Shown piece after piece: positions 650-64,000 of a stretch of DNA of 64,000 nucleotides (positions are counted from its first letter, which is position 1; every line of letters starts with the position of its first letter). The stretch spans positions 1,736,001 through 1,800,000 of the forward strand of contig CP154954.1 of NCBI GenBank assembly GCA_039621445.1. The letters run 5' to 3'. The position numbers and the translations under genes were made by a program. This DNA is from Euglena gracilis. Taxonomy: Eukaryota. The notes under the pieces were generated by a model that worked only from the letters and a program-made list of their open reading frames with translations, was not told the DNA's origin and did not search any database.

Positions 650-664
650 ATCTATTAATTTTTA

Positions 665-736: not shown

Positions 737-740
737 AACT

Positions 741-813
741 GCGCTTTTAGTTCAATTGGTAGAACGTAGGTCTCCAAAACCTGATGTAGTAGGTTCGAAT
801 CCTACAGAGCGCG
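741..813 (+). tRNA. trnW: tRNA-Trp(CCA)
   Basis: Acceptor GCGCTTT/AGAGCGC, anticodon loop CTCCAAA, GGTTCGAATCC. Confidence 0.95.
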
Positions 814-840
814 TTTATTTTTTTTCTTTATCTTAAATTT

Positions 841-913
841 GCCCCCATCGTCTAGAGGCCTAGGACATCTCCCTTTCACGGAGGCAACGGGGATTCGAAT
901 TCCCCTGGGGGTA
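841..913 (+). tRNA. trnE: tRNA-Glu(UUC)
   Basis: Typical plastid trnE GCCCCCATCGTCTAG..., anticodon loop CTTTCAC. Confidence 0.95.
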
Positions 914-919
914 ATTTAT

Positions 920-992
920 GCGGGTATAGCTCAGTTGGTAGAGCGTGGTCCTTCCAAGTCCAATGTCGCGTGTTCGAATCACGTTACCCGCT
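920..992 (+). tRNA. trnG: tRNA-Gly(UCC)
   Basis: Acceptor GCGGGTA/TACCCGC, anticodon loop CTTCCAA. Confidence 0.95.
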
Positions 993-1052
993 TTTAACTT
1001 TTTGTCTTTATAGAAAGTTAATTTTTAATTTTTATGATATTTTTAATATACT

Positions 1053-4000
1053 ATGGGATGTGCGATTCGTAAAATTTGGATCTTATTTTTAAAAAAATTT
1101 TTTGTCCATGTAAATTAAATTTTTACTCTTAATTTTCCGATATTTTAGTAGTTTAGTTTTTATTATCGAAAGAATTTTTTTATCTTTAAATTTTCTTATG
1201 TTTATAAAGAAAAATAATTTGGAACTTTAGTAGGAAATGTTTATACGATCATTTTGTAGTTTTTGTTATTTGTTTCCATGTTTTATTAAAAAATAATTTA
1301 TTTATTCCTCTAATTTATTTTTGTTATTAATAAATGAATGATCATTTCATTAAAAGAATAATAAAGCGGATAAAAAAAACGAAAAATATATATTAAATTT
1401 TATAAGGATGATTTTTTAATCAGAATTATATCTAAGTTATTTTAAGTATTTTTTGCGTTTTCTAATCTTTTAAGATTATATAATTGAGTAGCCGTATGTT
1501 ATTGAATTAACAAGTACGGTTTCGGATAAAAAACTTTTTAATTATTAAAGTTGATTTTACCTGCCTTGGTATCGTGTTGTGATTTTTAGTTTTTTACTTA
1601 TAAATGATATTTATAGTTTTAAAAATTTCCTTATAGTTTATTTTTTGATTTTTTAATAAAATTTTTAAAAATATTTGTTTTACATACTGTTGTTCTTAAT
1701 GATCCAGGTCGTTTGATTTCTGTTCATTTAATGCATACTGCATTAGTTTCAGGATGGGCTGGATCTATGGCCTTATATGAACTTGCTATTTTTGATCCTT
1801 CTGATGTTGCGCTAAATCCTATGTGGCGCCAAGGAATGTTTGTTCTTCCTTTTATGACACGTTTAGGGGTAACAAAATCTTGGGGTGCTTGGAGTGTTAC
1901 AGGGGAATCTTTTTCGGATCCAGGAATTTGGAGTTACGAAGGTGTAGCGGTAGCACATATAATTTTATCGGGTCTTTTATTTTTAGCTGCTATTTGGCAT
2001 TGGGTTTATTGGGACCTTGATTTATTTCGTGATCCAGCTAGTGGTGAGTTAAAGTTAGATTTACCTAGAGTATTTGGAGTTCATTTATTCTTGTCTGGAG
2101 CATTATGTTTAGCTTTTGGAGTTTTCCATGTTACGGGTGTTTTTGGTCCTGGTATTTGGGTTTCTGATCCTTATGGTTTAAGTGGGAGTGCGATTCGTTT
2201 TTAATGTTCTTTTAATAATTTTATATCGTTAAGAGATTTTTTATGAAATTTTTGTTCAATTAGGTGAAAAACCTTTTATTTTATTGAAATTATTGCGTTA
2301 TCAATAAGAACGATAACTTATTTAATTTTTTAACTGTAAAAAATTAACGATTTTTGGATAGATAATCTAAATATTGGCTATGCCATAGTTATATATTTTC
2401 TAATTAAATTTTGTATAATTTTTAATTTTTCTTCTAATAAGATTAATTTTTTAGCAAAATTGTGGATAAGTGTGTCCTCAAGAATTTCATTTAGCAACAA
2501 AAAGCAACGAAATAATTTAGTTTCTATCTTTGACATTTTTTGATATGTCTATTTTTAACTTTTTTAGAGGGGATGATTTAAACGGAAAAATTTTTTATTA
2601 ATTTTTATTGACTTAAATCACACTTATAAAAGTATCAAAATTATATTTTGATATATAAGTATTTGTTAAAATACAAGTACTTTATAAGTGAGTAGTTAAA
2701 TGATTTAAAAATTTCATATTTAATTTCGGATGAAAGATTTTTAATCTATTCTTGCAAATTGAACCTGTTATTCCTTCTTGGGGTGCTGAAGGTTTTGATC
2801 CGTATAATGTAGGTGGAATTGCTTCTTTGCGAGTTGTAAAAGTTCATACTTATGAGTTAAAAGTTTTTAACTTTTTCTTACTTTAATACCTTTTATTCAA
2901 TTTTTAATTTTTAGTAATAAAAAGCCAGGTAGATTTTTTTACTAAATAGCCATTTTTGTTTTAGGTTAGTTATATTTTTTGCAATAATATTTGCAGTTTA
3001 TTAATATTCTTGATAAAAACTTTTTTTACAGTTTTGTGAGAGTTTGGCTGTTAAAGAAGCATAAAATTTATTTTATTTTATTTTGTTATTGTAATTTTTA
3101 TTTTTTGTGTATGAAAATAATAACTAATTAATTGTATTTTTTTCCAAAATTTTTTTTTACACTTTGATTCGAAATTTTTTCCTAAGTTTAGTATTTACGA
3201 ATATTTTGTAAAAAAAGTTGAGTTAAAGATTTAAAAATAACTTATTTGTTTAGGTATTTTTAAATCTTTAAAATTTGTCCTAAATTTAGTATTAGGAAAA
3301 ATTGATTAATAATTTTATTATTAATTAAAGCCGTGTGCATTTTTATTTTGCATGCACGGTTTTTTTGAGGAAATATAATAATTTATTTTCTATCAAGGCA
3401 TCATATTGCTGCAGGTCTTTTAGGACTTATTGCTGGTGGATTTCATGTTTTAGTTCGCCCTTCTCAACGCTTGTTTGTACTTTTACGTATGGGGAATATT
3501 GAAACTGTTCTTTCTAGTAGTATAGCTGCGGTTTTTTGGTCTGCATTTGTTGTTTCAGGCACTATGTGGTACGGTTCTGCTTCTACACCTATTGAGCTAT
3601 TTGGTCCTACTCGATACCAATGGGATAAAGGTTATTTTCAGGAAGAAATAGAAAGACGTGTTCAAGCTAGTTTATCTGATGGTTGTTCTTTGTCAGAAGC
3701 TTGGGGTGCTATTTCGCCTAAGTTAGCTTTTTATGATTATATTGGGAATAATCCAGCAAAAGGTGGATTATTTCGTTCTGGTCCTATGAATAATGGTGAT
3801 GGTATAGCGACTGCATGGTTAGGTCATGCAGTATTTATTGATAAGGAAGGTAATTCATTGTTTGTTCGTCGTATGCCTACTTTTTTTGAAACGTTTCCAG
3901 TAATATTATTAGATCAAAATGGTGTTGTTCGTGCCGATATTCCGTTTCGTCGTGCTGAGTCTAAATATAGTATTGAACAAGTAGGCGTTACTGTTCGTTT

Positions 4001-4323
4001 CTTCGGTGGTAGTTTCGATACTTTAAGTTTTAATGATCCTGCTACTGTGAAAAGATATGCACGACGTGCTCAGCTTGGAGAAATTTTTGACTTTAATCGT
4101 TCTATTTTACAGTCTGATGGTGTTTTTAGAAGTAGTCCAAGAGGCTGGTTTACTTTTGGTCATTTGTCTTTTGCTTTAATTTTCTTTTTTGGGCATATTT
4201 GGCATGGGGCAAGAACTTTATTTAAATATTTGCTTGCTGGTATTGACCCTGATTTGGAGGAAGAGATTGAATTTGGTACTTTTGAAAAATTAGGTGATGA
4301 TACAACTAAGAGAATTAGTTTAA
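1053..4323 (+). CDS. psbB: photosystem II CP47 apoprotein, 5 exons (approx. 1053-1059, 1562-1576, 1681-2187, 2756-2826, 3399-4323)
   Basis: Spliced exons give [30 protein letters not shown]...; introns begin GTGCG/TTGTG/GTGCG/TTGCG; a 2-nt deletion near 4311 garbles the last codons relative to the copy at 41050-41613. Confidence 0.95.
1060..1561 (+). mobile_element. group II intron (psbB intron 1)
   Basis: 5' GTGCG; domain V-like AGCCGTATGTT...AGTACGGTTT at ~1490-1522; interrupts the Leu3 codon. Confidence 0.88.
1577..1680 (+). mobile_element. group III intron (psbB intron 2), 104 nt
   Basis: NUNNG start (TTGTG), ~100 nt, very U-rich, removal restores YRV-HTV. Confidence 0.88.
2188..2755 (+). 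mobile_element. group II intron (psbB intron 3)
   Basis: 5' GTGCG; removal restores LSG-KIEP. Confidence 0.85.
2827..3398 (+). mobile_element. group II intron (psbB intron 4)
   Basis: 5' TTGCG; domain V AGCCGTGTGCA...TGCATGCACGGTT at ~3329-3362; removal restores IAS-HHI. Confidence 0.88.
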
Positions 4324-5307
4324 TTATTTAATTAGTAAATTTGTTTTAGGAAATGTGAAAGTTGTGTAAATTTTTTATTTTTTATGAAGACTTTAGTTTA
4401 ACATTCTGTGTGCTAAGTTGTATTCTTTTTACAAAAGAAAAAATAAAAACAGCCAGTGTATATTTATTTTTTTGATAGATAGGAAAAAAAAAATAAAAGT
4501 GCAAAATGATATGGAAGAGATGAATACCTGGAAAAAATGAAAAAAACTAAAAAGAAAATTAGTAAAGCAGTAAAAGGAAACAAAGTATAAAAAAGTGCGG
4601 GAAAAATTAAATACAATAAAAAAAAATAAAATTTTTTAAATTTATTATATTCTATAAATTCTTTTTATTACAAAACTTATAAATTTTTTAATACTTTAAT
4701 TTAATAAAATAACTAATAATTATATAGATTTTAATATATATAATTATAAATTAATTATTTTTTATTTCTTTTTTCACATTTATTTTTTATTATTTTTTTT
4801 TTTGTTTTTATTTTTTATTATTTTTTGTTTTTTTTTCTTTTTATTTCTTTTAAAAAAATAAGAAATTATTTATTTTTATTTTTTTTTTATTTTTGTTATA
4901 TTGTTTTTTTTGAAATTATAAATACTGTTATTTTTTTAAATTTTTTTATTTATTTTTGTGTAAATTATTCTGTATTCTTTTCCTTAAAAATTTAAATTTG
5001 TCATAAAATTTAGTTTTATTTTTTATAATTTTTTTTTTTCCAATATTTTATTTTTTTTCTAATTTTTTATTTTTTTCTTTTTTTGCGTTTATTTTTGTCC
5101 TTTCTATTTTATCTTTTTAGTTTTTTGTTTCATATATTTATTGTTATGTTTTCGTTTTTTAATTTTTGTTTTTACTTGTTTTTCCTTTTTTTTATTTCTT
5201 TTTTAGTGTTGTCTCTTTTCTTCTTTACTTTACCCTTTTTTATTTTTTTTTCCTTTGCAACTTTCTCTTTTCTTTTCTGTTTTTCTTTTTTTTTTTTTTT
5301 TTTTTTC

Positions 5308-8300
5308 AGTTGTATCATCACCTAATTTTTCAAACGTACCAAATTCAATCTCTTCCTCCAAATCAGGGTCAATACCAGCAAGCAAATATTTAAATAAAGT
5401 TCTTGCCCCATGCCAAATATGCCCAAAAAAGAAAATTAAAGCAAAAGACAAATGACCAAAAGTAAACCAGCCTCTTGGACTACTTCTAAAAACACCATCA
5501 GACTGTAAAATAGAACGATTAAAGTCAAAAATTTCTCCAAGCTGAGCACGTCGTGCATATCTTTTCACAGTAGCAGGATCATTAAAACTTAAAGTATCGA
5601 AACTACCACCGAAGAAACGAACAGTAACGCCTACTTGTTCAATACTATATTTAGACTCAGCACGACGAAACGGAATATCGGCACGAACAACACCATTTTG
5701 ATCTAATAATATTACTGGAAACGTTTCAAAAAAAGTAGGCATACGACGAACAAACAATGAATTACCTTCCTTATCAATAAATACTGCATGACCTAACCAT
5801 GCAGTCGCTATACCATCACCATTATTCATAGGACCAGAACGAAATAATCCACCTTTTGCTGGATTATTCCCAATATAATCATAAAAAGCTAACTTAGGCG
5901 AAATAGCACCCCAAGCTTCTGACAAAGAACAACCATCAGATAAACTAGCTTGAACACGTCTTTCTATTTCTTCCTGAAAATAACCTTTATCCCATTGGTA
6001 TCGAGTAGGACCAAATAGCTCAATAGGTGTAGAAGCAGAACCGTACCACATAGTGCCTGAAACAACAAATGCAGACCAAAAAACCGCAGCTATACTACTA
6101 GAAAGAACAGTTTCAATATTCCCCATACGTAAAAGTACAAACAAGCGTTGAGAAGGGCGAACTAAAACATGAAATCCACCAGCAATAAGTCCTAAAAGAC
6201 CTGCAGCAATATGATGCCTTGATAGAAAATAAATTATTATATTTCCTCAAAAAAACCGTGCATGCAAAATAAAAATGCACACGGCTTTAATTAATAAACC
6301 AAATTACTAATCAAATATTCCTAATACTATATTTAACACAAATTTTACAAATAGAAAAATACCTAAACAAATAAGTTATTTTTAAATCTTTAACTCAACT
6401 TTTTTTACAAAATATTCGTAAATACTAAACTTAGGAAAAAATTTCGAATCAAAGTGTAAAAAAAAATTTTGGAAAAAAATACAATTAATTAGTTATTATT
6501 TTCATACACAAAAAATAAAAATTACAATAACAAAATAAAATAAAATAAATTTTATGCTTCTTTAACAGCCAAACTCTCACAAAACTGTAAAAAAAGTTTT
6601 TATCAAGAATATTAATAAACTGCAAATATTATTGCAAAAAATATAACTAACCTAAAACAAAAATGGCTATTTAGTAAAAAAATCTACCTGGCTTTTTATT
6701 ACTAAAAATTAAAAATTGAATAAAAGGTATTAAAGTAAGAAAAAGTTAAAAACTTTTAACTCATAAGTATGAACTTTTACAACTCGCAAAGAAGCAATTC
6801 CACCTACATTATACGGATCAAAACCTTCAGCACCCCAAGAAGGAATAACAGGTTCAATTTGCAAGAATAGATTAAAAATCTTTCATCCGAAATTAAATAT
6901 GAAATTTTTAAATCATTTAACTACTCACTTATAAAGTACTTGTATTTTAACAAATACTTATATATCAAAATATAATTTTGATACTTTTATAAGTGTGATT
7001 TAAGTCAATAAAAATTAATAAAAAATTTTTCCGTTTAAATCATCCCCTCTAAAAAAGTTAAAAATAGACATATCAAAAAATGTCAAAGATAGAAACTAAA
7101 TTATTTCGTTGCTTTTTGTTGCTAAATGAAATTCTTGAGGACACACTTATCCACAATTTTGCTAAAAAATTAATCTTATTAGAAGAAAAATTAAAAATTA
7201 TACAAAATTTAATTAGAAAATATATAACTATGGCATAGCCAATATTTAGATTATCTATCCAAAAATCGTTAATTTTTTACAGTTAAAAAATTAAATAAGT
7301 TATCGTTCTTATTGATAACGCAATAATTTCAATAAAATAAAAGGTTTTTCACCTAATTGAACAAAAATTTCATAAAAAATCTCTTAACGATATAAAATTA
7401 TTAAAAGAACATTAAAAACGAATCGCACTCCCACTTAAACCATAAGGATCAGAAACCCAAATACCAGGACCAAAAACACCCGTAACATGGAAAACTCCAA
7501 AAGCTAAACATAATGCTCCAGACAAGAATAAATGAACTCCAAATACTCTAGGTAAATCTAACTTTAACTCACCACTAGCTGGATCACGAAATAAATCAAG
7601 GTCCCAATAAACCCAATGCCAAATAGCAGCTAAAAATAAAAGACCCGATAAAATTATATGTGCTACCGCTACACCTTCGTAACTCCAAATTCCTGGATCC
7701 GAAAAAGATTCCCCTGTAACACTCCAAGCACCCCAAGATTTTGTTACCCCTAAACGTGTCATAAAAGGAAGAACAAACATTCCTTGGCGCCACATAGGAT
7801 TTAGCGCAACATCAGAAGGATCAAAAATAGCAAGTTCATATAAGGCCATAGATCCAGCCCATCCTGAAACTAATGCAGTATGCATTAAATGAACAGAAAT
7901 CAAACGACCTGGATCATTAAGAACAACAGTATGTAAAACAAATATTTTTAAAAATTTTATTAAAAAATCAAAAAATAAACTATAAGGAAATTTTTAAAAC
8001 TATAAATATCATTTATAAGTAAAAAACTAAAAATCACAACACGATACCAAGGCAGGTAAAATCAACTTTAATAATTAAAAAGTTTTTTATCCGAAACCGT
8101 ACTTGTTAATTCAATAACATACGGCTACTCAATTATATAATCTTAAAAGATTAGAAAACGCAAAAAATACTTAAAATAACTTAGATATAATTCTGATTAA
8201 AAAATCATCCTTATAAAATTTAATATATATTTTTCGTTTTTTTTATCCGCTTTATTATTCTTTTAATGAAATGATCATTCATTTATTAATAACAAAAATA

Positions 8301-8563
8301 AATTAGAGGAATAAATAAATTATTTTTTAATAAAACATGGAAACAAATAACAAAAACTACAAAATGATCGTATAAACATTTCCTACTAAAGTTCCAAATT
8401 ATTTTTCTTTATAAACATAAGAAAATTTAAAGATAAAAAAATTCTTTCGATAATAAAAACTAAACTACTAAAATATCGGAAAATTAAGAGTAAAAATTTA
8501 ATTTACATGGACAAAAAATTTTTTTAAAAATAAGATCCAAATTTTACGAATCGCACATCCCAT
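5308..8563 (-). CDS. psbB: psbB, inverted copy (same 4 introns), last ~5 codons lost in the garbled palindrome centre
   Basis: ORFs 7412-7903 and 5230-6144 match the + copy; ATG at 8563. Confidence 0.93.
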
Positions 8564-8623
8564 AGTATATTAAAAATATCATAAAAATTAAAAATTAACT
8601 TTCTATAAAGACAAAAAGTTAAA

Positions 8624-8696
8624 AGCGGGTAACGTGATTCGAACACGCGACATTGGACTTGGAAGGACCACGCTCTACCAACTGAGCTATACCCGC
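8624..8696 (-). tRNA. trnG: tRNA-Gly(UCC)
   Basis: Reverse complement of 920-992. Confidence 0.95.
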
Positions 8697-8702
8697 ATAA
8701 AT

Positions 8703-8775
8703 TACCCCCAGGGGAATTCGAATCCCCGTTGCCTCCGTGAAAGGGAGATGTCCTAGGCCTCTAGACGATGGGGGC
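8703..8775 (-). tRNA. trnE: tRNA-Glu(UUC)
   Basis: Reverse complement of 841-913. Confidence 0.95.
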
Positions 8776-8802
8776 AAATTTAAGATAAAGAAAAAAAATA
8801 AA

Positions 8803-8875
8803 CGCGCTCTGTAGGATTCGAACCTACTACATCAGGTTTTGGAGACCTACGTTCTACCAATTGAACTAAAAGCGC
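8803..8875 (-). tRNA. trnW: tRNA-Trp(CCA)
   Basis: Reverse complement of 741-813. Confidence 0.95.
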
Positions 8876-8879
8876 AGTT

Positions 8880-8951
8880 TGGCTCAGACAAGATTTGAAC
8901 CTGTGACCAAGGGCTTATGAATCCCCTGCTCTACCTCTGAGCTACTGAGCC
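8880..8951 (-). tRNA. trnM: tRNA-Met(CAU)
   Basis: Reverse complement of 665-736. Confidence 0.93.
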
Positions 8952-8966
8952 TAAAAATTAATAGAT

Positions 8967-9039
8967 GGTGAATGACGGGGATCGAACCCGCGAATGAAGG
9001 AGTCACAGTCCTTTGCCTTACCACTTGGCTACACCCACC
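8967..9039 (-). tRNA. trnH: tRNA-His(GUG)
   Basis: Canonical-length copy of 575-649 (G-1, GTGGGTG/CATTCAC). Confidence 0.95.
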
Positions 9040-9103
9040 TATAAAAAATATAATAAAAATTTATTATAACTCGAAAACTGTCTGATTAAATATAAAAATA
9101 TTT

Positions 9104-9185
9104 TGAGTCGTGCTGGATTCGAACCAGCGAAAGATGAACTAGCGGATTTACAATCCGCCCCCATTAACCACTCGGGCAACAACTC
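9104..9185 (-). tRNA. trnY: tRNA-Tyr(GUA)
   Basis: Reverse complement of 429-510. Confidence 0.95.
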
Positions 9186-9261
9186 GCAATTAGATGTTAA
9201 ACAACAAAAACAATTAACATAGAAAAAGTTATTTAAGATCAAAAAAAATATAGATAAAACT

Positions 9262-9879
9262 ATGTCAAGATATAGAGGACCACGATTGCGAATAGTTCGT
9301 AGAATAGGAAAACTTCCAAGTCTTACAAATAAAACATCAAAGAAAAGAAAATCCCCAGGGCAACCAGCAACATCCTTTAAAAGGAAAAAAAAAATATCAA
9401 AATATAACATAAGATTAAAAGAAAAACAAAAACTGCGATTTAACTACGGAATAACCGAAAGACAACTTCTAAATTATGTAAAAAAATCTAGGAAAAAAAA
9501 AGGATCATCCGGAAGATTTTTGCTAACTTTTTTGGAAATGAGATTAGATAATATTGTACATCGAATAGGTTTTGCACCTACAATAATGGCTGCAAAACAA
9601 CTAATAAATCATGGTCACATTTGTGTAGATGACAAAGTTATCAATATACCTAGTTTTATTTGCCAACCAAAAAGTATTATAAAACCTAAAAAAAGTACTG
9701 TATCAGAAAATGTCATACAAAAAAACATAGAATCTAAAGAATTACTATTAATACCACCACATTTATCTCTTAACAAAAAAAACTTAGAAGCAAAAATTAT
9801 TGGTTTAATCAATAGAAAAGCGATATCGTTAATAGTTAATGAACTTTTAGTAATCGAATTCTATTCACGCAAGGTCTAA
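9262..9879 (+). CDS. rps4: 30S ribosomal protein S4
   Basis: 205 aa; MSRYRGPR..., [32 protein letters not shown] are S4 signatures. Confidence 0.98.
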   Translation: MSRYRGPRLRIVRRIGKLPSLTNKTSKKRKSPGQPATSFKRKKKISKYNIRLKEKQKLRFNYGITERQLLNYVKKSRKKKGSSGRFLLTFLEMRLDNIVHRIGFAPTIMAAKQLINHGHICVDDKVINIPSFICQPKSIIKPKKSTVSENVIQKNIESKELLLIPPHLSLNKKNLEAKIIGLINRKAISLIVNELLVIEFYSRKV

Positions 9880-28518: not shown

Positions 28519-29784
28519 TTCTCACAAAGTTCAAACAGTCTGTTTCTTTGATTTGACATTAATAGTATAATGGATTTTTTAAAATTAATTTTAAATGCAT
28601 ATAAATTAACTAACCTTAATATTTAATAAAACAAAAAGTTCCCTTAAAAAAATAATGTTTTAAAACAATTACTTCGATGTTTATACAATTTTGCAGAAGT
28701 ACTATTTTTCGCATTATTTTCATGGCCAAAATTAATTAACCAAGAACGAGCTTTTTTAATCCTTTATTTTCAAAGGCTTTCTTACGGAAGTTTGCAACCA
28801 ACCTGTTAATGCTTACTTCTCTTTTAGTTTCATTACTCTCCATTATTAAAGACAAATTAGATGCTGAGTTAAATAAATAAATTTTCGAAAAAAATAAACG
28901 AACTCTTGTTAAATAATAGTTTTTTTATAACATAAATTTTGATATTACACTACATAAAACTATTAGTTTTTCAAAAAAGTTGAAAAAATTAAAATGGTAT
29001 TATATGAACAAATTGTTTTTATTAACTCAAAACTTTAAAAATTGAAAAATTTGCCTCTTTATTAAATTTGATACTAAAAAATTATTGTCTTGTTTTTTTC
29101 ATATCATAGGAGTTTTCTAAAAATTTAATAATTTATATTTTTTGTAAAAAAATTACTTGTTCTTACCATTTAATAAAAATTTGGCTTTTATTAAAAAAAT
29201 TTTTTCATTAAATATTATATTGAAATTTATAACGAAAACGATGCTCTAATTCTATATTTAGTTGATTAGATGGAAATTTGATAAAATTAGAACCATTTTT
29301 ACTAATATAAATAGGTCAAGTGTTACACATACAATAGAGAAAATAAACCATAAAAAATTAAAGTATTTTTAACAAAATTGACGTACAATTTTTGTCCTAA
29401 CTTGAAAAAATAACAATCTTCAATTCTTGTAATAGGAAAGTTTGGCAAATTTATGGTATTATAGTAAAATAACAAAGTTTAAACTAGCTCAATATTAGAA
29501 AAAATTTTAAGCAATAGTATAAATAATTATTAAATTGACAAAAAATCATAACCAAAAAAGTATTAGAGTTCAAATTTTTAAGAGTCACTTTTTCTTTATT
29601 CAAAGATTGTCTTAAAAATTTCTTTACAAAAAGTTCAAACATGATGTTTTTTTATTATTTAACTTGTTGAGAGAAAAATTTTTTATCAAAACTTTAAAGA
29701 TTTTAACTACTTTAACAAAGAAATCGACAAAATTCATAAAAATCAATCAAAAACATACTCAATATTAATAAATAAACTCGCGAT

Positions 29785-29899
29785 AAGGGCACTAAAAGCT
29801 TTTCCCAGAAAGCAACCTTCCAAGTATCCATTTACCCTTTATGTTTAACTTGCAAGTTCGAAATGTTTTAAGTGGATCCATAAAGACAAGAGCACCCTA
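29785..29899 (-). rRNA. rrn5: 5S rRNA
   Basis: Terminal helix AGGGTGCT/AGTGCCCT, conserved CGAAC, ~115 nt, directly downstream of the 23S 3' end. Confidence 0.88.
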
Positions 29900-29973
29900 A
29901 AATAAAAGTTCATTCAAGAAACTTTTAAATCTTAAAAAAGTGACAAGTAAAAATAAATGTTTTGTTTTCATAT

Positions 29974-30290
29974 AGGAAAAAATTTTCGGTCGGTTAGTAT
30001 ATCTCGGCTAAAATTGTTACCAATTGTACACCTAATACCTATCAAACGGTTCGTCTTACCGTGACCTATGAAGAGTACTTATCTTAAGGTGGGCTTCCTA
30101 CTTATATGCTTTCAGCAGTTATCCACTCCGCACTTGACTACCCAGCGTATTCTGTTGGCACAAAAACTGGTACATCAGTGGTGCGTCCTTCCCGGTCCTC
30201 TCGTACTAAGGAAAGCGCCTTTCAATACTCTAACGCTCACACCGGATATGGACCGAACTGTCTCTCGACGTTCTGAACCCAGCTCACGTA

Positions 30291-30325
<35 letters not shown>

Positions 30326-30342
30326 GTACTACCGCCCCAGGT

Positions 30343-30402
<60 letters not shown>

Positions 30403-30564
30403 CAGCCTGTTATCCCTAGAGTAACTTTTATCTGTTTACGACGGCCTTTCCATACAGCACCGTCGGGTCACTAAGACCGACTTTAGTCTCTGTTTGACTT
30501 ATAAGTCTCACAGTCAAGCTTTCTTATGCCTTTACACTCCACAACTAATTCCGTAATTTGTGAG
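29974..30564 (-). rRNA. rrn23: 23S rRNA, 3'-terminal ~590 nt fragment (chimerically truncated)
   Basis: Peptidyl-transferase region (GGATAACAGGCTGAT, GGCACCTCGATGTCGGCTC, GAGCTGGGTTCAGAACGTCG) and sarcin-ricin loop AGTACGAGAGGACC. Confidence 0.96.
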
Positions 30565-30991
30565 TTCACAAAAAGCACGCCAAAATTCAGAATCTAAATT
30601 ATATATTTTTCCTTTCTTTTTTCGTAAGGCCAAATAAGATTCTATTTGGTTTTTATTAAGAAAAGAACCTTTACCTTCAACGCTCTTTTCAAAGTTTAGA
30701 TTATCATATTCGGATAACATAACATTTTTTTTTTACTTAAATTCTTGCCTAAAAGTCGAATTTTGAATTTTAATTTAATTAAATTAAAGAATAAATGAGT
30801 GAATCGAAACCAAAAACGTTTAAATCAAACTGTCAGTTTCAATACACTAACTACACTATTTTATAGTTTAAGTAATAATATACTATAAAACAAACATAAT
30901 TTTAAACTATTAATAATTGAAAAAATTTTTATTATAAAAAATCTATCAACATAAATTAAAAACGTATAATTTAATAAAACAATAAATTAAA

Positions 30992-49274: not shown

Positions 49275-51100
49275 ATGACATTAGATGTATCAATTAGTAC
49301 GTTACGAAGTTGCTTTTAGTTTATTAGGTATAAGTTAAAATAAAAGATAAGAAATAAAATTTTATTTATGTGTTTTTTTTAAGTTAAGTAAATTTTCCTT
49401 AAATTGTATGTTTTTGGCTATTCATATTAATTAAAAAATTGGTTAATCTAATTGGTTAATCTTAATATTTTCAATAATTTGTTAATAAGTTTAGTAATTT
49501 TTCAAGTAGAACGTAAATAGGTTTTATTTTGGATTTTTTTTTAATAAAGAATAAACTTTTGACATATTTTTATTTAAAATTAAATGTTTAAGCTGTATGT
49601 TTTTTTTTACTTGTACAGTTTTTTAAGAGAAATTTTAGTTCGCTAATATATTTCTTTTTTCATTAAATTCTAGTTTAAATCTTTTTTCTTGAGTATTTAT
49701 TTTTCAAAAGTTAATTTTTTAAATAATTTTCGTTTTTGGGGATTTTATTCTCTTTTTTAAACTTTTCTGTATGAAAAGTAAAATTATTTTATTTTTTGGT
49801 AATTGAAATTTATTTATTATTTTAGTAGACCAATAAAAGCAAAGAGAATAGGTTTTAATTTAATTTTCTATAAATTTTTATTCTAAAGAAAATTTTACAT
49901 TTTAGTTTTAATAAGTCTTGTTTTAGAGTTTTATATAATATAAAACAACCTAACCTTTTTTGCGATAGTATGTTGAAAAGCTAAATAAATCAACAATTTT
50001 TGTTTAGTTTGTGAATAAAATTTTCAAAATTGAATTTATATTTTCTACTTTACTTATTCCTGAAAGAGTTTTTTGGGAAAAACGAGTTGAAGAAATTATT
50101 CTTCCTACTTTAAGTGGTCAGATGGGGGTTCTTAAAGACCATGTGTGACACATTATTAAAACGTTTGTTAATTTTATTAATTATAATTTTTTGATAAATG
50201 CTTGTTTGAGATTTAACTTTACTTTTACTTTTAACCATATTAGTTAATTATTTTTATTTTCTGCATTAACATTTTGTTTGTGCGTGGTAGCTTTGAATAT
50301 TTTCTAAAATTTAAAATTTACTTTTTTATAAATTATTTTTTATAAATAAGAAAAATTTAAAATTTTAAGATTAATATAATTTATAGTTTATTTTGAAAAT
50401 GTATATTTAAGTCTTGTTTTAGAAGAATATATTTAAACTGTTATTTTATAACTATTTAAAGTGTTTTTACATGTTTTAGAAAAAATTTTTAATAGTTTTA
50501 ATTTTTTTAAAAACAATACTTGATAAACATAATTTGTAAGATATAATATTTGAATCTAAAAAATTTTTAAATTTGTATGCAATGGTAAGGAATGTGTATT
50601 TTTATGTAAATTATTTACAAAATTTTTGTTTTTTTTTAGTACTTTTGATTCTATCACAATTTAGTTTTAGTCAATTTTTAAGCAAATTTTAAAAGATTTT
50701 TTGTTAAATGCCGTATGAGATTTAAATCTCCCGTACTGTATTGTTGGGGAAAAAATTAACTTAATTTATTAATTTTTAATGATAAATTTTTTTCTATCTA
50801 AATATTCCAATATTGACTGGATTAGATATAGGTATAATCTTAGTTCGTCAAAAGTCTTCTTCCGATTGGACTAGTTTGGTTGTAACAGGAGGTTTTGCAT
50901 TAATTAATAGCAATAACGTTACTATATTAGTCAATGAAGCAGAATTTGGTTCCGAAATTAATGTAGAACAAGCACAGATTTCTTATAATTCATCTAAACA
51001 TGCTTTAGAAATGAATAAAGATATTAAGAGAAAATTTGAATTAACTTTAAATTTAAAAAAAGCACGTGCTAGATTCCAGGTCACTCAACTTAAAAAGTAG
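49275..51100 (+). CDS. atpE: ATP synthase CF1 epsilon subunit, exons approx. 49275-49296, 50054-50142, 50804-51100
   Basis: MTLDVSI / IPERVFW...LPTLSGQMGVLKDH / IPILTGLDIG...KKARARF. Confidence 0.93.
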
Positions 51101-51371
51101 TTTAATTTATTGTTTTATTAAATTATACGTTTTTAATTTATGTTGATAGATTTTTTATAATAAAAATTTTTTCAATTATTAATAGTTTAAAATTATGTTT
51201 GTTTTATAGTATATTATTACTTAAACTATAAAATAGTGTAGTTAGTGTATTGAAACTGACAGTTTGATTTAAACGTTTTTGGTTTCGATTCACTCATTTA
51301 TTCTTTAATTTAATTAAATTAAAATTCAAAATTCGACTTTTAGGCAAGAATTTAAGTAAAAAAAAAATGTT

Positions 51372-52089
51372 ATGTTATCCGAATATGATAATCTAAACTT
51401 TGAAAAGAGCGTTGAAGGTAAAGGTTCTTTTCTTAATAAAAACCAAATAGAATCTTATTTGGCCTTACGAAAAAAGAAAGGAAAAATATATAATTTAGAT
51501 TCTGAATTTTGGCGTGCTTTTTGTGAATCTCACAATATTAATATGGAATCTATTTTAAATTTATATATATCGAATAAATCTATTTCTAGTAAGGATTGTT
51601 AAAATACTATCTTATATTGTTGGACGAGATTACCTTAAAGGCAGAACCGCTAACTTTTATGCTTACATTAAAGTGGATAAACGATTAGATACGCGCTCGA
51701 CTCGTTTTTTGGATTTGAGATTAAAAAAAGACTGTGAAGAGGTTACAGTTTGTGGAAATTATAGCGCAGCTAAGTCAGAAGAATATTCTATCGATTATAT
51801 AATAAAAATGGTTTTAAGTCAGAGAGCATATGGTATACAAGATTTTACTGATTCGTTAGTAATTAGTCCGTGTTTGTCTGTAAAATTAGATGATCATTAC
51901 CAAATGTTGTCACTTTGGAACCGCATGATAAAACTAGCTGAAAAAGGCAATATTTTTAAGGCTCTATCTCTTTTAAAAAAAGAAAGGCCAGATTACTACA
52001 TCAAAAAATTTGTAGCAATTAAAAAAAATTTAAATGCAATTTTTATGTCTTTTAAAAATGATAAAAAATTAAATAGGGAGGTTTTATGA
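51372..52089 (+). pseudogene. degenerate geminivirus-Rep-like protein (HUH-fold plus oligomerisation region, no helicase), one frameshift near 51600
   Basis: ORFs 51372-51602 and 51673-52089 join after removing one T; contains KRLDTRSTRFLDL (GRS-like), CGNYSAAKS..IDYIIK (motif III) and RMIKLAEKG..ALSLLKKERP; clearly paralogous to the downstream Rep. Confidence 0.65.
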
Positions 52090-53930
52090 ATTTATTAAAT
52101 ACGAACAAAAATAACATTGATAATAATATGAGACGTATTTCATCAAAAAAAGTTTTTTTAACCTATTCTTATTGTTCCGCAGATCTTTCAGAAATTTTAA
52201 ATTTTTTTAAAAATAAATTTGAAGTAAAATATGGACTAGTTGATTATGCGTTGGTAAGATAGTTTCATAAAACCGGATACCCTCATGTACACTCATATTT
52301 CGTTTTTATTAAAAAAATAGACACTAAGGCAGCAAATTTTTTTGATATATATGTTGATTCTAAAACTTATAGTGCATATGTTCAAACAGTTAATAACGAG
52401 AAAGATTTGTTGGACTATTTAACAAAACAAATATTTAACTTTGTAGATGCTTCAAAAAATTTCATGGCTTCTCCATCAATTTTGAAAAAGTATGGTAAAT
52501 ATTTTGAATATTGTCCATTAGAAGAAAGGATGATTGAATTAGCAAAAAAAGGAGAGATAGCGGATGCTATGTTGTTGTTTGAAAAAGAAAAACCTTCTGA
52601 ATTTGTATATAAAGGTGATGCTATTGAAAAACGACTTAGAAACATATATTTAAGCACAAGGTTAGGAGTTAAAGCAAAAATTAATTTTAATGACTATGTG
52701 ATACCTCGAGATTTAAGGTGGATGTTAGACATTTATGAATCTTATCTGAATATGGGTGAAAATAAAGTATTTTTAATTTTAGGCGGTGAGCTTAGGTATT
52801 TAATAGATTTTTTTGAATCTTATTTGCAATTCATCAGCTTTTATCTTCTAGTAGTAAAGGCAGCTAAGAATCTACTGTGATTTAGATATAATTGTAATTA
52901 CTATGCGATAATTTTTTCATACTCTAGCATTTTAGAGTATCAAAATGTAGATGAGCTAAAAAATTTATTTAACTCTTTACAAACAAGGTTAAAAGCTCAT
53001 AATAGAATAAATAGTTTTAAAGTACTTTTATTTCCTTTTTTATATAAAGCTATAATGTAGTCAAAAAGCTGTAAAGTTGTGGAACAATTTCTAAAAGAAA
53101 AAGGAATTGAAATGCAAGGCATACTACCTTAGCAATTAAATGCCGATGATAAATATTCCCCCACATCATATTCAGAAATGGAAAAATCAAGAATACAGAG
53201 AACTTGAAAGTAAAAACTAAAGTTATATTCAAGAATTCTTAAAAAAGCTATATAGAATGATGAAAATGAAGGAAATGATAATCACAAATACTCTACGTTT
53301 TTATTATATGTTATATATTTATCGTAGGGAATAACTAATTTGTTAAAATATGTTAGATTTATTCTGGGCGGTTAGTGGTAACATAATTTGAAAGCCCTCT
53401 GACATCAAAGTTCGAATTATTCAAGCACTGAGGTTTTTTTAATAAGATTTTGCAATTTTAAAGGAGAGTAGTAATAAGGAAGCTTAGAGAAGATTAATAA
53501 TGATTTAGAAATACTTGTCATTACCGATGCGATAATTTTTCAGACTACTAGCATTTAGAGTATCAATGTAGATGAGCTAAAAAATTTATTTAACTCTTTA
53601 GAAACAACGTTAAAAGTTCATAATCGAAAAAATAGTGTTAAAGTACTTTTATCTCCTGCTTTACCAAAAGCTATAATGTCGTCAAAACCTTATAAAGTTT
53701 TGGAACAATTTTTTAAAGAAAAAGGAATTGAAATGGAAGGCATACTACCTTATCAATTAAATGCCGATGATAAATTACTTCCCCCACATTTTCATAATTC
53801 AGAAATGGAAAAATCAAAGGAATACAGAGAACTTGAAAGTAAAACTAAAGTTTATATTCAAGAATTCTTAAAAAAAGCTAATATGAATGATGAAAATGAA
53901 GGAAATGATAATCAAAAAAATACTAATTAA
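52086..53930 (+). pseudogene. geminivirus/CRESS-type rolling-circle replication initiator (HUH endonuclease plus degenerate SF3 helicase); in-frame TAG at 52260, 3' half disrupted by a tandem duplication
   Basis: Manual translation from 52086: ...RRISSKKVFLTYSYC...ALVR*FHKTGYPHVHSYF...KIDTKAANFFDI...DLLDYLTK; GGGAGG Shine-Dalgarno upstream. Confidence 0.8.
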
Positions 53931-54110
53931 TACGTTTTTATTATATGTTATTATTTTATTAGTAATAAAAATATTACTAATTTGTTATTTGTTATAAATA
54001 TGTTATATTTATTCTAGGGCGGAAAATTAGTGGTAACATTAATTTGTTAAAAAATGCCTCTTGACATCAAAAGTTCGAATTAATTTTGAAAAGCATGAGG
54101 CATTTTTTTA
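52800..54110 (+). repeat. imperfect ~0.65 kb tandem duplication (approx. 52800-53440 and 53441-54110)
   Basis: Shared strings GATGAGCTAAAAAATTTATTTAACTCTTTA (52950, 53572) and TGATGAAAATGAAGGAAATGATAATCA (53258, 53888). Confidence 0.85.
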
Positions 54111-54114
54111 ACAA
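54044..54114 (+). terminator. long stem-loop downstream of the Rep-like gene (terminator or origin element)
   Basis: Arms TTGTTAAAAAATGCCTC / GAGGCATTTTTTTAACAA with inner TCAAAA/TTTTGA stem, ending in a T-run. Confidence 0.55.
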
Positions 54115-54537
54115 TTATTTTAAGTTTAATAAAACTTAAAATTTTTTTTTAATAAATTTTTTTTTTTCTGTCCGCCCGGAGAATAAAAAAATTTAGAAAA
54201 TTATTGCTCTATTATTTTTGGGAGAATAAAATGAACAATTCAAAAACAAAACTTCAAAAAAAAAAATAAAGTTCGCTGAGAATAAAATACCAGCGGACAC
54301 GTTTTTGTTATTTTTTGTTATAAAGTTGTGATTAAAATCATTATAAATATTATTACTAGTATAATTATTATCAAATTAATTTTTATTTTATTGCTAACTT
54401 GTTATTAAATTGTTATTAAATAGCTAATTTGTTGTATGAGCATTAAGCGTTAAATTAATTGGGTAGGTCAACAATAAACTATTGTTGAAAGAATATAGTT
54501 ATAGTTAATTGGACAAATTTTTTATGGGAGAATAATT

Positions 54538-55719
54538 ATGGTTCAAAAATTAAGAAAAAAATACAAATTCAAAATTAACACCACAAGTTCGAGATATTAT
54601 GGTAGTTATAATATAACACGTAATTGGAGAATTTTAATAAGGACAAATTTTCAATCTTTAATAGAAATGGATTATTCTTTTATTAAAAAATGGCATGCAA
54701 TAATAAACGACGATAAAATTTCTTTTATTATGTATACCATATGCAAATACGTGGATTTTCAGAAAGAAACCGATATTTTTATTAAAGCTTACCTCGAACT
54801 AAAGAAAAATTGTCGGCCAAAATATTTAGAAGACTTGTTTAGTTTTGATAAAAATACAAATATAAGTATCGAAAAAGCTAAAGGGGATAGTCCTGGCAAT
54901 GTTGGTGGTTTTATTATTAATTGCCGAGACCCCGAAGAGGAACTTTTTTGGAATAGAATACCGCGCTATGAATCTAAAAATAATAACTGTTTAAGTTTTA
55001 AATTTATTACTCAATATAATTTAATTGAGAAAGCAAGGGGAAATTATTTTCTACCTAAAATTTTCCTTGAAGTTTTAAAAAAAGGTCCGGAAGAGATTGA
55101 TAAAGAAAAAAGAAAAACTGTTTTAGCAAAAAAAATCGATAATGACGAAGAAATAGAAAAAATAGAAATAAAAAAAGAAAAACAATTTGAAATTAAGAGC
55201 TTTTTCGAGGATTCAGAATTTTTAGCAATAACCGAAAAATATACAAAAAAGTGTGAGGATTTAATAAATATTAACAATAAAGGGAAAAAAATAAGAGATT
55301 TATTTTGCAATTATATTTTAGAATTATTAATTCTAGAAATAAATATTTTAAATTCTCAAAGTAAACCAAAATATTCGGATGTTTTTATTTGTACTTATAA
55401 AAAAAAAAAGAACAATAATGAAATAGAGTGGTATTTTAATTGGATGTCTATTGATAGAATCCTTAAACAATTTTTATATAAATCAATTAAACCGTGGCAA
55501 AATAAAAATATTGACGATATTAATCAAGGAGAAATTTATAATATAATTACTAATAAATCACTTACAGATAATACAATAAATTCTGTTAAACGTTCTTTTC
55601 AAAATAGATTGAATGAAAATGTTAACTTAACGAACGTAAGAAAATCATACAAAAAAATAAAATTTGTTTCGTTTAGTTTAACTAAGTTTTATAGCAATGA
55701 AAATAACGTTTTTTTGTAA
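54538..55719 (+). CDS. hypothetical protein, 393 aa, intron-less
   Basis: Long open frame in very AT-rich DNA; GGGAG Shine-Dalgarno 7 nt upstream of the ATG; no motif recognised. Confidence 0.75.
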   Translation: MVQKLRKKYKFKINTTSSRYYGSYNITRNWRILIRTNFQSLIEMDYSFIKKWHAIINDDKISFIMYTICKYVDFQKETDIFIKAYLELKKNCRPKYLEDLFSFDKNTNISIEKAKGDSPGNVGGFIINCRDPEEELFWNRIPRYESKNNNCLSFKFITQYNLIEKARGNYFLPKIFLEVLKKGPEEIDKEKRKTVLAKKIDNDEEIEKIEIKKEKQFEIKSFFEDSEFLAITEKYTKKCEDLININNKGKKIRDLFCNYILELLILEINILNSQSKPKYSDVFICTYKKKKNNNEIEWYFNWMSIDRILKQFLYKSIKPWQNKNIDDINQGEIYNIITNKSLTDNTINSVKRSFQNRLNENVNLTNVRKSYKKIKFVSFSLTKFYSNENNVFL

Positions 55720-55814
55720 AATTAAAAATTGAGATTTTCGTATGTGATAGTTTTAATACTAGCCTTATAAGAGATTTTCTTAATTTAATTACAAGTGAAG
55801 ATATTCTATGGATA

Positions 55815-56267
55815 ATGTATTCGGTAGAACCTGTAATATTAATACATACTGATTCCAAAGATAAAATTCTTCAAGAGACATATCTAAAATTAGAATGTAA
55901 AGCAGTAAAATCACAGCTATATTTAAATATATATGTGATATTTGATGAAAAAAGAGTATGGACTAAAAATTTAGTTGAAAGCTTTTTTTCTACTATTAAA
56001 AATGGTAAAATTTTAAATATATCAAACGTACCAAAACTAGGAGGTCTTTGTTTTTGTTATGTTCTTAATAACCTTTTGCTAAAAGCAAATAAAAAAAATC
56101 AATTAGCTGAAATTAAAATATATCAGCATACAAAATATGAAATTCCTTCCAAATATAAAATCAAATTTATCAACGAATCGCCATTATTTTTAAGAGAATA
56201 TACTGGGTCTTTGAACTTCTTATATATTTTACTTAGTATGTTACTAGATAATATAACTAATAAATAA
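55815..56267 (+). CDS. hypothetical protein, 150 aa
   Basis: Open frame co-oriented with the 393-aa ORF; no motif recognised. Confidence 0.55.
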   Translation: MYSVEPVILIHTDSKDKILQETYLKLECKAVKSQLYLNIYVIFDEKRVWTKNLVESFFSTIKNGKILNISNVPKLGGLCFCYVLNNLLLKANKKNQLAEIKIYQHTKYEIPSKYKIKFINESPLFLREYTGSLNFLYILLSMLLDNITNK

Positions 56268-56748
56268 TTAAGTTATTATATTATTCCATTAAAATTTTTT
56301 AAAGTCCACCAAGAATAAAATTCTAGTGGACACGTTTGTTATTAAATTGTTATTATTAGTATAATTATTATAAAATTATTTAATTAAAAATATAAATAAT
56401 TTAGTTAGCTAGTTGTTATTAAAATGTTATTAACTTTTTTAAAGTTCACCGAGAATAAAATCCTAGTGGACACGTTTTTGTTATTTTTATTGGTTTTAGT
56501 TTAAGGTCAGCAGGAACAACTTTTATAACCTTTTATTATGGTATCGTACTTTAATAAATCTAAATTTAAGGAATTCTGCAACATATTCTAAAGATAAAGG
56601 GCATTTTGGAGATGTAAGAAATACTTTCCTAGCTGACAGTCGGTATTTAGCGTTTTTACCAACGTTTTTTTCAAATTTATTAAAGGAACTTTTCTTTGAT
56701 TTTACTTTTTTCTAACGTAATTTTTTGATTAGTTTTATTTGGAGTTAT

Positions 56749-56798
56749 AACCTATTATTAATCTATTAACCTATTATTAATCTATTAACTTATTATTA
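56749..56798 (+). repeat. 19-bp tandem repeat (AACCTATTATTAATCTATT x2.6) followed by a TAT microsatellite
   Basis: Read directly from the sequence. Confidence 0.8.
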
Positions 56799-57134
56799 TA
56801 TTATTATTATTATTAGGGGGCAATTTACTTAGCAAATTCTCGGTCGTTACTGACAAAACGGGGTATGGTTTTGTAAACATTAACCACGCAATAACACAAT
56901 CACAATATTGCACTAATAACTTAAAAAAGTCACTCACATGATATTATTACTAAATAAATGTAATCTGCCTCAGGCAAACGGTTTTGAACTATGTGTATGA
57001 AAAGTAATGAGAATTCTTTACAATTAAAGGGATGTAACATGTAAATCGTTAAATACGACTGCATACAACTCCTATTTAAGATACTATGTACGGGAAATAA
57101 GCAAAAAATAATACATTATTCAAGGAAAACTACT

Positions 57135-57344
57135 ATGGTACGTAAAAAAGATATATTAAATGAAAGGTTAAAAAATTACACAATAGAAACAGACGTGTCC
57201 CGTAAGGTGAGGCAAAAAGTTGCGTTCCGTTTAGCGGCTAAAAACATATTTTTGATGTATAATAAAGTTTCATCTTCATTTACTGTGGAGGATATTAGTT
57301 ATTCTTTACTTGAGAAGCTGAAGCCATATGGTGTATTATCGTAG
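57135..57344 (+). CDS. hypothetical small protein, 69 aa
   Basis: ATG start with AAGGA 8 nt upstream; basic N-terminus; no recognised homology. Confidence 0.35.
   Translation: MVRKKDILNERLKNYTIETDVSRKVRQKVAFRLAAKNIFLMYNKVSSSFTVEDISYSLLEKLKPYGVLS

Positions 57345-57536: not shown

Positions 57537-64000
<6,464 letters not shown>

Follow-up and report, generated by a model that had tools for sequence, protein, structure and literature searches.

Rep proteins of the HUH type bind a metal ion through their two HUH histidines, with a conserved glutamate preceding this motif as a metal ligand, and use the tyrosine of motif III to nick an origin hairpin. The central domain of Rep forms the oligomer, and its SF3 helicase unwinds DNA in the course of rolling-circle copying. 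Relics of mobile replicons in organelle DNA are of an already known kind: plasmid genes were reported to be integrated into red-algal plastid genomes, often as multi-copy pseudogenes, and plasmids of the red algae Porphyra/Pyropia carry geminivirus-related replicases (Lee et al. 2016, PMC4814812). In those parts of that paper drawn on here, the pieces integrated into red-algal plastids are other plasmid ORFs; the sole sources named there for replicase homologues are the Phytophthora sojae mitochondrion, Reticulomyxa and Nicotiana nuclei, and Euglena is not mentioned. A further likeness is given by the endogenous geminivirus-like elements of plant nuclei, which, according to the part of the literature considered (PMC7758297), are Rep-derived, host-fixed and in many cases decayed, as is the Euglena relic; in contrast to the latter, which is plastid-resident and belongs to a different Rep clade, they are nuclear and descend from true angiosperm geminiviruses.

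The window analysed here is a 64,000-nt stretch of Euglena gracilis chloroplast DNA (GenBank assembly GCA_039621445.1, contig CP154954.1, positions 1,736,001 to 1,800,000), in which Rep relics locate to the spacer that separates atpE (50011-51100) from the rbcL exons, the latter starting at about 61265. A literature search found no publication reporting Rep relics in Euglena plastid DNA. With a family HMM, six significant pieces were identified at four places in the window, and the spacer holds at least four Rep-derived pieces, the main copy being one of them. The parts of the spacer are the following:

51559..52086, + strand: older decayed Rep copy with GRS KRLDTRSTRFLDL, motif III YIIK and central domain kept (family HMM E 2e-33, positions 51-192)
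52076..52081, + strand: Shine-Dalgarno-like hexamer GGGAGG (sequence only)
52086..52259, + strand: main Rep relic, N-terminal 58 codons, motif I FLTY at 52155-52166 (family HMM E 1.9e-12)
52260..52262, + strand: in-frame TAG at the Glu column (E59; among 66 relatives in the alignment, 90% or more carry Glu here)
52263..52880, + strand: remaining nuclease domain, central helical domain and start of the dead SF3 helicase (family HMM E 3e-46)
about 52518-52649, + strand: central helical domain of the main relic (alignment)
52782-52799, + strand: Walker A remnant GGELRY (alignment with relatives)
52878-52880, + strand: TGA closing the main frame (translation)
52878..53500, + strand: copy A, a second helicase tail, degraded and interrupted by several stops (tblastn of P0001 passes through at 83% identity)
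53501..53930, + strand: copy B, C-terminal tail of the helicase (match to positions 286-391 of the family HMM, E 6.6e-4)
53931..54130, + strand: 3' flank with a small hairpin and a long stem-loop (folding)
56526..56711, - strand: Rep N-terminal fragment, motif I remnant KVFLTSPKC (family HMM E 5.3e-9; tblastn of P0008 E 6.7e-6)
57045..57341, + strand: Rep N-terminal fragment (ORF 57135-57344, NIFLMYNK; family HMM E 4e-5, tblastn of P0004 E 6.4e-4)

The main frame (52086-52880) comprises 264 codons and is continuous except for its sole internal stop, the TAG at 52260-52262, which is how the earlier note had read it; translation likewise places motif I, HVH (52284-52292), KKIDTKAANFFDI (52311-52349) and YLTK (52416-52427) precisely where this note had located them, and the hexamer taken for a Shine-Dalgarno sequence is indeed found 4 nt 5' of the ATG. 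The note had also stated that solely the portion downstream of the stop was annotated, and this is correct: P0001, recorded as 'Uncharacterized 33.1 kDa protein in rbcL-atpE intergenic region' of Euglena gracilis (281 aa, ORF281), begins with MASPSIL and is identical to window positions 52464-52877 in 134 of 138 residues. It was thus one stop codon because of which the nuclease half escaped annotation.

Similarity of the main relic to Rep is far beyond chance. With X placed at the stop, Pfam Gemini_AL1 (PF00799) matches residues 17-115 with 33 bits (E 6.3e-8; curated cut-off 24 bits), while the portion after the TAG alone scores 17.9 bits and hence remains under the cut-off; the same family is matched in all ten close relatives scanned. 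As to the two other Pfam families proposed by the earlier note as a check, neither Gemini_AL1_M (PF08283) nor Viral_Rep yielded a match at E<=10. Searching PDB sequences with phmmer identified wheat dwarf virus Rep (E 1.5e-6), and HMMER against 1.84 billion representatives returned 376 matches at E<=1e-3, of which 69 reach 1e-10 and five 1e-30. Motifs I, II (HUH), GRS and III (YxxK) follow each other in the relic in the order identical to that of geminivirus Rep, and H67, H69, Y111 and K114 occupy alignment columns in which 90% or more of the relatives agree. The fold was predicted with AF2 on the basis of a 67-row alignment (pLDDT 87.1, pTM 0.73, residues 20-190 above 90), the single-sequence model (pLDDT 44) being useless. 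The best six PDB matches of this model in Foldseek are geminivirus Rep nuclease domains, led by 7vg8 (E 1.5e-8, target TM 0.85, rmsd 2.0); across 7vg8, 6we0, 6we1, 6q1m and 1l2m E-values range from 1.5e-8 to 5.8e-7, and for the Reps of TYLCV (7vg8/1l2m) and wheat dwarf virus (6q1m/6we0) the nuclease fold is alike with target TM 0.82-0.85 and rmsd 1.8-2.0. Consequently, the assignment to the Gemini_AL1-type HUH Reps made in the earlier note holds at the levels of profile, sequence and fold as well as in an alignment to L027, a geminivirus Rep that was verified as such; this alignment takes in the central stretch and in this way also bears out the proposed match to the Rep oligomerisation helices.

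The other three pieces are all more decayed than the main copy. The upstream copy (51559-52086) is related to the latter with a BLASTP E of 5e-14, reads NFY in place of HUH, misses motif I and the helicase and gives no Pfam match at E<=1. At the tail of the main copy, copies A and B are about 85% identical at a spacing of 621-630 nt; copy A has no counterpart in the reference protein P0001, of which residues 147-281 are 94.8% identical to 53526-53927, i.e., to copy B, whose ORF 53676-53930 corresponds to the P0001 C-terminus and whose frame is disturbed at 53504-53570 relative to that protein. Within the 3' flank, a small hairpin (53958-53981, z -3.0) is followed by a long stem-loop (54044-54114, -16.8 kcal/mol, z -4.3), and these hairpins may mark the 3' end of an mRNA or be left over from the border of the element; the segment 53921-54012 is a repeat of 51116-51207 at 71% identity. 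The motif NANTATTAC, expected in the loop of a geminivirus or CRESS origin hairpin next to rep, occurs 24 times in the window (21.4 expected) and is therefore not enriched; one copy (53970-53977) forms part of a hairpin stem, the hairpin being weak (z -3.0). Next to the relic, a search for origin hairpins carrying a Rep-type nonanucleotide gave none; the clade to which the relic belongs may have a nick motif of its own. An ORF at 54538-55719, considered as Rep on account of weak atlas leads (0.78), was rejected after hhalign against the Rep profile had given a probability of 0.5. A further candidate, for the mapped replication origin, was the repeat tract rich in TG at 58000-60700, across which GC skew does not change its sign.

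Regarding its kinship, the relic is distinct from the geminiviruses proper, and this candidate source was rejected: apart from the missing Gemini_AL1_M and Viral_Rep matches, its position in the tree is outside the geminivirus references. The Gemini_AL1 score of 33 bits compares with 100-188 bits for true geminiviruses, and where the true geminivirus loci L016 and L027 match both Gemini_AL1_M and Gemini_coat, the Euglena relic is broken, plastid-resident and without a nearby coat gene, no coat match having been obtained with Pfam among the neighbouring ORFs of the window. In a 50-row tree the four Euglena-linked rows (main copy, upstream copy, P0002 and P0016) fall into a 17-row clade (SH-aLRT 98) together with 13 unnamed Reps, all of them encoded on contigs of 1,400-2,854 nt, and the four geminivirus references stand opposite the Euglena rows across starred branches (98). 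Uniting the four Euglena rows in one clade is not rejected by the AU test (p 0.84), the tree constrained in this way being 33 log-likelihood units better. Members of the unnamed clade, found in metagenomes and sequencing runs (P0003, P0004, P0005, L001 and others), are 32-37% identical to the relic over residues 15-257 (E about 1e-36) and have in common with it the domain order of nuclease, central domain and P-loop helicase; in contrast to the broken Euglena relic they are intact, comprising 355-574 aa and retaining both Walker motifs (A and B) and the Arg finger. One of them, L001, possesses a 108-nt terminal repeat at 99% identity and is therefore a 1,637-nt circle; it encodes Rep only, and a strong hairpin (z -6.5) immediately precedes the gene.

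Among 30 clusters of Rep relatives almost none bears a name, and a profile word search returned five proteins. PLSDB plasmids gave no match, neither by blastn of 51300-54200 nor by tblastn of Rep at E<=1e-3, so at that sensitivity a close connection with plasmids of phytoplasmas or of other bacteria is not seen. The window protein matched no metagenome contig, the single proteins P0004, P0009, P0012 and P0011 had no match in IMG/VR, and a narrow motif I pattern was not found in 185,579 prokaryote genomes, the latter being weak evidence. From the earlier proposal of a captured gene of a rolling-circle plasmid or ssDNA virus there remains a Rep in plastid DNA beside atpE, while a geminivirus proper as the source does not hold; since the nearest kin are unnamed Rep replicons of 1.4-2.9 kb, the main relic is more aptly termed a captured small plasmid or CRESS-like element.

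The identity of the main relic as Rep does not render it the Rep gene it had been called, as far as a working gene is meant. The TAG stands at the near-invariant E59, hence an uninterrupted nuclease frame with the conserved Glu is not found, and given that TAG also terminates atpE of this window (51098-51100), this codon is a stop in this plastid. It is moreover not peculiar to this assembly, as a 58-aa product (P0007) identical to 52086-52259 is recorded on eight Logan contigs. Where relatives show PGTGKT (family GxPGTGKT), the relic reads GGELRY and is four residues shorter, and P0001, the frame of which is intact, reads IFSD, SS and EG in the positions of FDD (Walker B), xN (motif C) and RR (Arg finger), i.e., none of the SF3 helicase signatures (Walker A, Walker B, motif C Asn, Arg finger) is present; in the window the helicase region is in addition duplicated and frame-broken. 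The main copy (52086-53930) has accordingly kept its nuclease motifs and central domain, is closed by the TAG and has lost Walker A; with its stop, its lost helicase motifs and its degraded and duplicated tail it is a pseudogene and not a working gene, and the present copies are presumably without replicative activity.

Several observations support that the relics are part of the plastid genome. Their GC of 0.26 resembles that of the surrounding plastid DNA (0.40 for the free circle L001) and, as expected of an organelle relic, they lie within organelle DNA, have a host-like composition and are broken. The idea of an artefact, be it similarity that arose by chance in AT-rich DNA, contamination or an assembly error, could draw on the two foldback palindromes of the assembly, the arms of which differ by 0.4% and which are typical of long-read artefacts, and on the best public runs containing just 0.73 of the sampled words of 51300-54200. 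It is, however, contradicted already by E-values of 1e-8 to 1e-46, by the independent reference annotation, which puts the C-terminal two thirds into the same spacer, and by public-run contigs matching at about 99% (an X9 contig of 2,833 nt spans 51300-52963 with 13 differences) along with the plastid-like GC, and is hence barely conceivable. As the X9 contigs do not cover 52964-53564, copy A may be confined to this assembly and, because of the foldback palindromes, single-base details in the window other than the independently confirmed stop deserve caution. Very probably, the relics derive from a small circular Rep replicon, plasmid- or CRESS-like, captured in the plastid spacer of Euglena gracilis: by a presumed route, this Rep-encoding element would have entered the plastid DNA between atpE and rbcL in the Euglena gracilis lineage and, once integrated, have been duplicated locally and have decayed.

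A copy about 85% identical to the main one is present elsewhere in four public runs (X1, X2, X5 and X9), and the comparison of both counts against a relic that merely decayed. Third codon positions account for 22 of the 40 listed nucleotide differences, 19 of the 31 changed codons are synonymous (19% expected), amino-acid differences amount to 10/89 and 4/37, and the Walker A loss is common to the main copy and the second copy (P0045). Due to this synonymous-biased divergence and the common loss, purifying selection after the loss of Walker A is suggested, so that a Walker-A-less Rep would have been under selection after the split and for much of its history may not have been mere junk. This, together with intact catalytic motifs, an ORF281 still open in the reference strain, and the GGGAGG before the ATG along with the strong stem-loop at 54044-54114, would fit a helicase-dead Rep (central domain with or without nuclease) which was domesticated and is expressed in the plastid (ORF281 in strain Z, a 205-codon frame here), having an organelle role, e.g., in DNA binding, recombination or replication control. 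Against such a role speaks that a stop common to eight independent contigs interrupts the nuclease half, that the window frame ends at 52880 with the last 143 residues of ORF281 lost to the degraded duplicate, and that the second copy itself is broken up into two ORFs (89 and 114 aa) and passes into unrelated sequence after its SLETTL stretch; domestication is accordingly considered improbable. The contigs carrying the second copy (2,238-2,344 nt) were also considered as a living autonomous Rep plasmid of E. gracilis, the plastid copies being recent integrations of it, as their size fits the relatives and their depth is organelle-like (3,807 in X2; in X9 40-46 versus 43 for the plastid-type contig). 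Yet they match window positions 52219-53613 only, their motif I region is unlike that of the window, their flanks were not found in the window, the recorded products are fragments with the dead Walker A in common, and the length of a Logan contig is no indication of circularity, hence a living plasmid is very improbable. A rather doubtful extension would be that a Rep consisting of nuclease and oligomerisation domain, its ATPase site lost, was kept by purifying selection through duplication and about 15% nucleotide divergence, either as a domesticated DNA-nicking or -binding protein or as initiator of resident plastid mini-plasmids which make use of a host helicase; if true, the contigs of 2.2-2.3 kb which show organelle-like depth in E. 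gracilis runs may be a surviving resident replicon of this sort.

The assignment to Rep gives an identity to ORF281 of the model E. gracilis plastid genome, formerly 'uncharacterized' in its database record, and, within the literature searched, the relic is the first HUH Rep of the geminivirus/CRESS kind to be reported in a plastid genome. Euglenid plastids thereby join the few organelles known to have acquired mobile replicons, and for the large unnamed clade of metagenomic Rep circles of 1.4-2.9 kb, algal organelles emerge as a possible host setting. The finding suggests that the euglenid plastid was at one time home to mini-replicons or was entered by them, and the synonymous-biased divergence of the two copies raises the question of a cellular role for a helicase-dead Rep.

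Between atpE and rbcL, the Euglena gracilis-type plastid DNA of the window carries a decayed gene for a rolling-circle replication initiator of the HUH class (Rep; main copy, 52086-53930), whose frame runs from ATG 52086 to TGA 52878-52880 with a TAG at 52260 as sole internal stop. The earlier note had described this continuous frame, its single TAG and the preceding GGGAGG, all of which were found in the sequence, and sequence and translation likewise bear out its motif coordinates exactly. The stop is real, because a 58-residue product identical to the window and ending there was recorded from eight Logan contigs, and since atpE ends with TAG, it is read as an ordinary stop in this plastid. 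In at least 90% of aligned relatives, the TAG column holds Glu; the columns of H67, H69, Y111 and K114 reach this same level of conservation. A profile HMM derived from 47 relatives was searched against the six-frame translation of the entire window, and the stretches identified are given below with their neighbours.

Rep-derived stretches (family HMM E-values) and neighbouring features
50011-50148 and 50813-51100, atpE exons
51559-52086, + strand, upstream copy, E 2e-33
52076-52081, GGGAGG
52077-52259, + strand, main copy, N-terminus, E 1.9e-12
52263-52877, + strand, main copy, E 3e-46
53559-53927, + strand, helicase tail, E 6.6e-4
56526-56711, - strand, Rep N-terminal fragment, E 5.3e-9
57045-57341, + strand, Rep N-terminal fragment, E 4e-5
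From near 61265, rbcL exons

The proposed identity as a Gemini_AL1-type Rep nuclease is supported by profile, sequence and fold comparisons. With the stop replaced by X, 264 residues were compared with Pfam, whereby Gemini_AL1 was matched at 33 bits (cut-off 24, E 6.3e-8); Gemini_AL1_M and Viral_Rep, which the earlier note had also named, did not appear at E<=10. In an alignment, the central stretch, taken there for the oligomerisation helices, falls on the Gemini_AL1_M region of L027, a verified geminivirus Rep. Among PDB sequences, phmmer identified the Rep domains of wheat dwarf virus and TYLCV (E 1.5e-6 to 3e-4), and a HMMER search of 1.84 billion representatives yielded 376 matches at E<=1e-3, the best full-length ones being the intact relatives P0003, P0004 and P0005 (E ~1e-36, 35-37% identity over residues 15-257). 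All ten relatives scanned possess Gemini_AL1, in most cases followed by a P-loop stretch. While folding from the single sequence reached a pLDDT of only 44, the model predicted from an alignment with 66 relatives (pLDDT 87.1, pTM 0.73) fits geminivirus Rep nuclease domains, which make up its six best Foldseek matches in the PDB (top match 7vg8, E 1.5e-8, target TM 0.85, rmsd 2.0).

The helicase part of the main copy is, judged by its motifs, dead: where relatives possess a Walker A of the form GxPGTGKT, the window has the shorter GGELRY. Window positions 52464-52877 are identical in 134 of 138 residues to the E. gracilis reference protein P0001 ('Uncharacterized 33.1 kDa protein in rbcL-atpE intergenic region'), which hhalign places on columns 134-360 of the family profile (probability 99.7, E 1.3e-25) and which has IFSD as Walker B and lacks both the motif C Asn and the Arg finger. 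Behind the frame, the tail is duplicated in tandem, copy A (52878-53500) being ~85% identical to copy B (53501-54130); copy A contains stops, and the start of copy B is disturbed in frame relative to P0001. Copy A is absent from P0001 and so far known from this assembly; of the words sampled from 51300-54200, a fraction of 0.73 at most is present in the public runs, and the contigs of run X9 end at 52963. The upstream copy retains GRS, YxxK and the central domain, has NFY in place of HUH and lacks the helicase part. Between the divergently oriented N-terminal fragments stand 2.7 copies of a 19-nt repeat unit (56748-56798, 96% identity), a layout that may be described as iteron-like.

A further copy, ~85% identical to the main copy, was found in the public runs X1, X2, X5 and X9 on contigs of 2,238-2,344 nt that lack copy A. 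It matches window positions 52219-52273, 52388-52831 and 53565-53613, shares the dead Walker A, and is the source of two fragments, P0002 (89 aa) and P0045 (114 aa); its flanks were not found in the window. Its depth is organelle-like (3,807 in X2; 40-46 in X9 as compared to 43 for the plastid-type contig of that run).

One clade of a 74-row tree, with support 99, unites the main copy with P0002 and P0016 (a 91-residue fragment, 56% identical by phmmer, with Glu at the TAG column). Inclusion of the upstream copy was not rejected by the AU test (p 0.84); the tree so constrained surpasses the quick free tree by 33 log-likelihood units. A second tree of 50 rows (22 close relatives, 20 IMG/VR Reps, four verified geminiviruses, four Euglena rows) placed all four Euglena rows in a 17-row clade (support 98) beside 13 unnamed Reps, all on contigs of 1,400-2,854 nt, and the geminiviruses apart. 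The reading of the earlier note holds and the finding is real, but what is present is a relic in several copies rather than a gene, derived from a clade of Rep mini-circles instead of a geminivirus. The metagenome contig bearing P0004 (L001, 1-1751) has a 108-nt terminal repeat and is therefore a 1,637-nt circle; its Rep (428 aa) is the sole long ORF, its GC is 0.40, and a hairpin with 27-nt arms (z -6.5) lies directly upstream of the gene. Of the Rep replicons found in this analysis it is one of the smallest. Among IMG/VR relatives further removed, most are circular 2-2.8 kb contigs that also bear a second ORF, exact terminal repeats being present in 29 of 38. The GC of the plastid copies (0.26-0.29) matches their surroundings, which suggests long residence.

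Directly past the atpE stop and again directly past the Rep tail lies a 92-nt direct repeat (51116-51207 and 53921-54012, 71% identity, 2,805 nt apart), possibly left over from the borders of an inserted or duplicated unit. The cluster of the neighbouring ORF 54538-55719 includes two other E. gracilis 'rbcL-atpE intergenic region' proteins and, from E. gracilis var. bacillaris, a protein of 586 residues. Together, ORF393 and ORF150 (54538-56267) correspond to a single 576-residue protein that Logan contigs encode (P0154, 99% identical), and in this same cluster are ORF274 plus ORF295 of the reference. The window appears to carry a frameshift near 55716; a family search with this protein gave no match, and by hhalign it does not resemble a Rep. 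Upstream of rbcL, degenerate tandem repeats rich in TG extend over ~2.7 kb (58000-60700), their + strand being nearly devoid of C (GC skew 0.94-0.97). Elsewhere, 30554-51540 is a foldback palindrome centred near 41047 and 99.6% identical to its own reverse complement, so that atpB/atpE are present twice, inverted; in a second one (1-9613), 1-4307 is mirrored by 5308-9613 at 99.6%, doubling the tRNA Y-H-M-W-E-G cluster. The arms differ by 0.4%, which points to an artefact of long-read assembly and not to a biological origin. At 29784-30578, directly adjoining the left end of the larger palindrome, only 5S rRNA and the final ~600 nt of 23S rRNA are found.

In the open-access literature searched, no paper was found linking Euglena or euglenid plastid genomes with geminivirus-like, CRESS or HUH Reps; passages of euglenid plastome papers name neither plasmid nor viral genes in those genomes, and the word Euglena is absent from passages of Lee et al. 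2016 (PMC4814812) and of Kazlauskas et al. 2019 (PMC6668415). Lee et al. report that red-algal plasmids encode geminivirus-like replicases and that red-algal plastid DNA holds plasmid-derived pseudogenes, which is the closest known kind to the Euglena relics.

Motif counts and a hairpin scan gave no convincing replication origin beside the relic: NANTATTAC occurs 24 times in the window as compared to 21.4 expected, and the single copy near the Rep gene forms part of a weak hairpin's stem. HUH Reps bind metal via the HUH motif, nick an origin hairpin with the motif III tyrosine, form oligomers and unwind DNA by an SF3 helicase. By analogy, the ancestral Euglena-plastid Rep would have held a metal ion with its HUH, cut a hairpin origin with its motif III tyrosine, assembled into an oligomer and unwound DNA with its helicase; the present copies are presumed to lack replicative activity. 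Selection was assessed on 40 listed of the 73 differences between main and further copy, the listed ones spanning 52423-52675. Third codon positions account for 22 of the 40 (binomial p 0.004), and of the 31 codons changed, 19 are synonymous, where random changes would give 19% (p 3e-7). At ~15% nucleotide divergence, the protein-level changes amount to just 10 in 89 and 4 in 37 residues. This synonymous bias and the few residue changes argue that a Rep already devoid of Walker A remained under purifying selection after the two copies had split, which is the chief result against reading the relic as simple junk.
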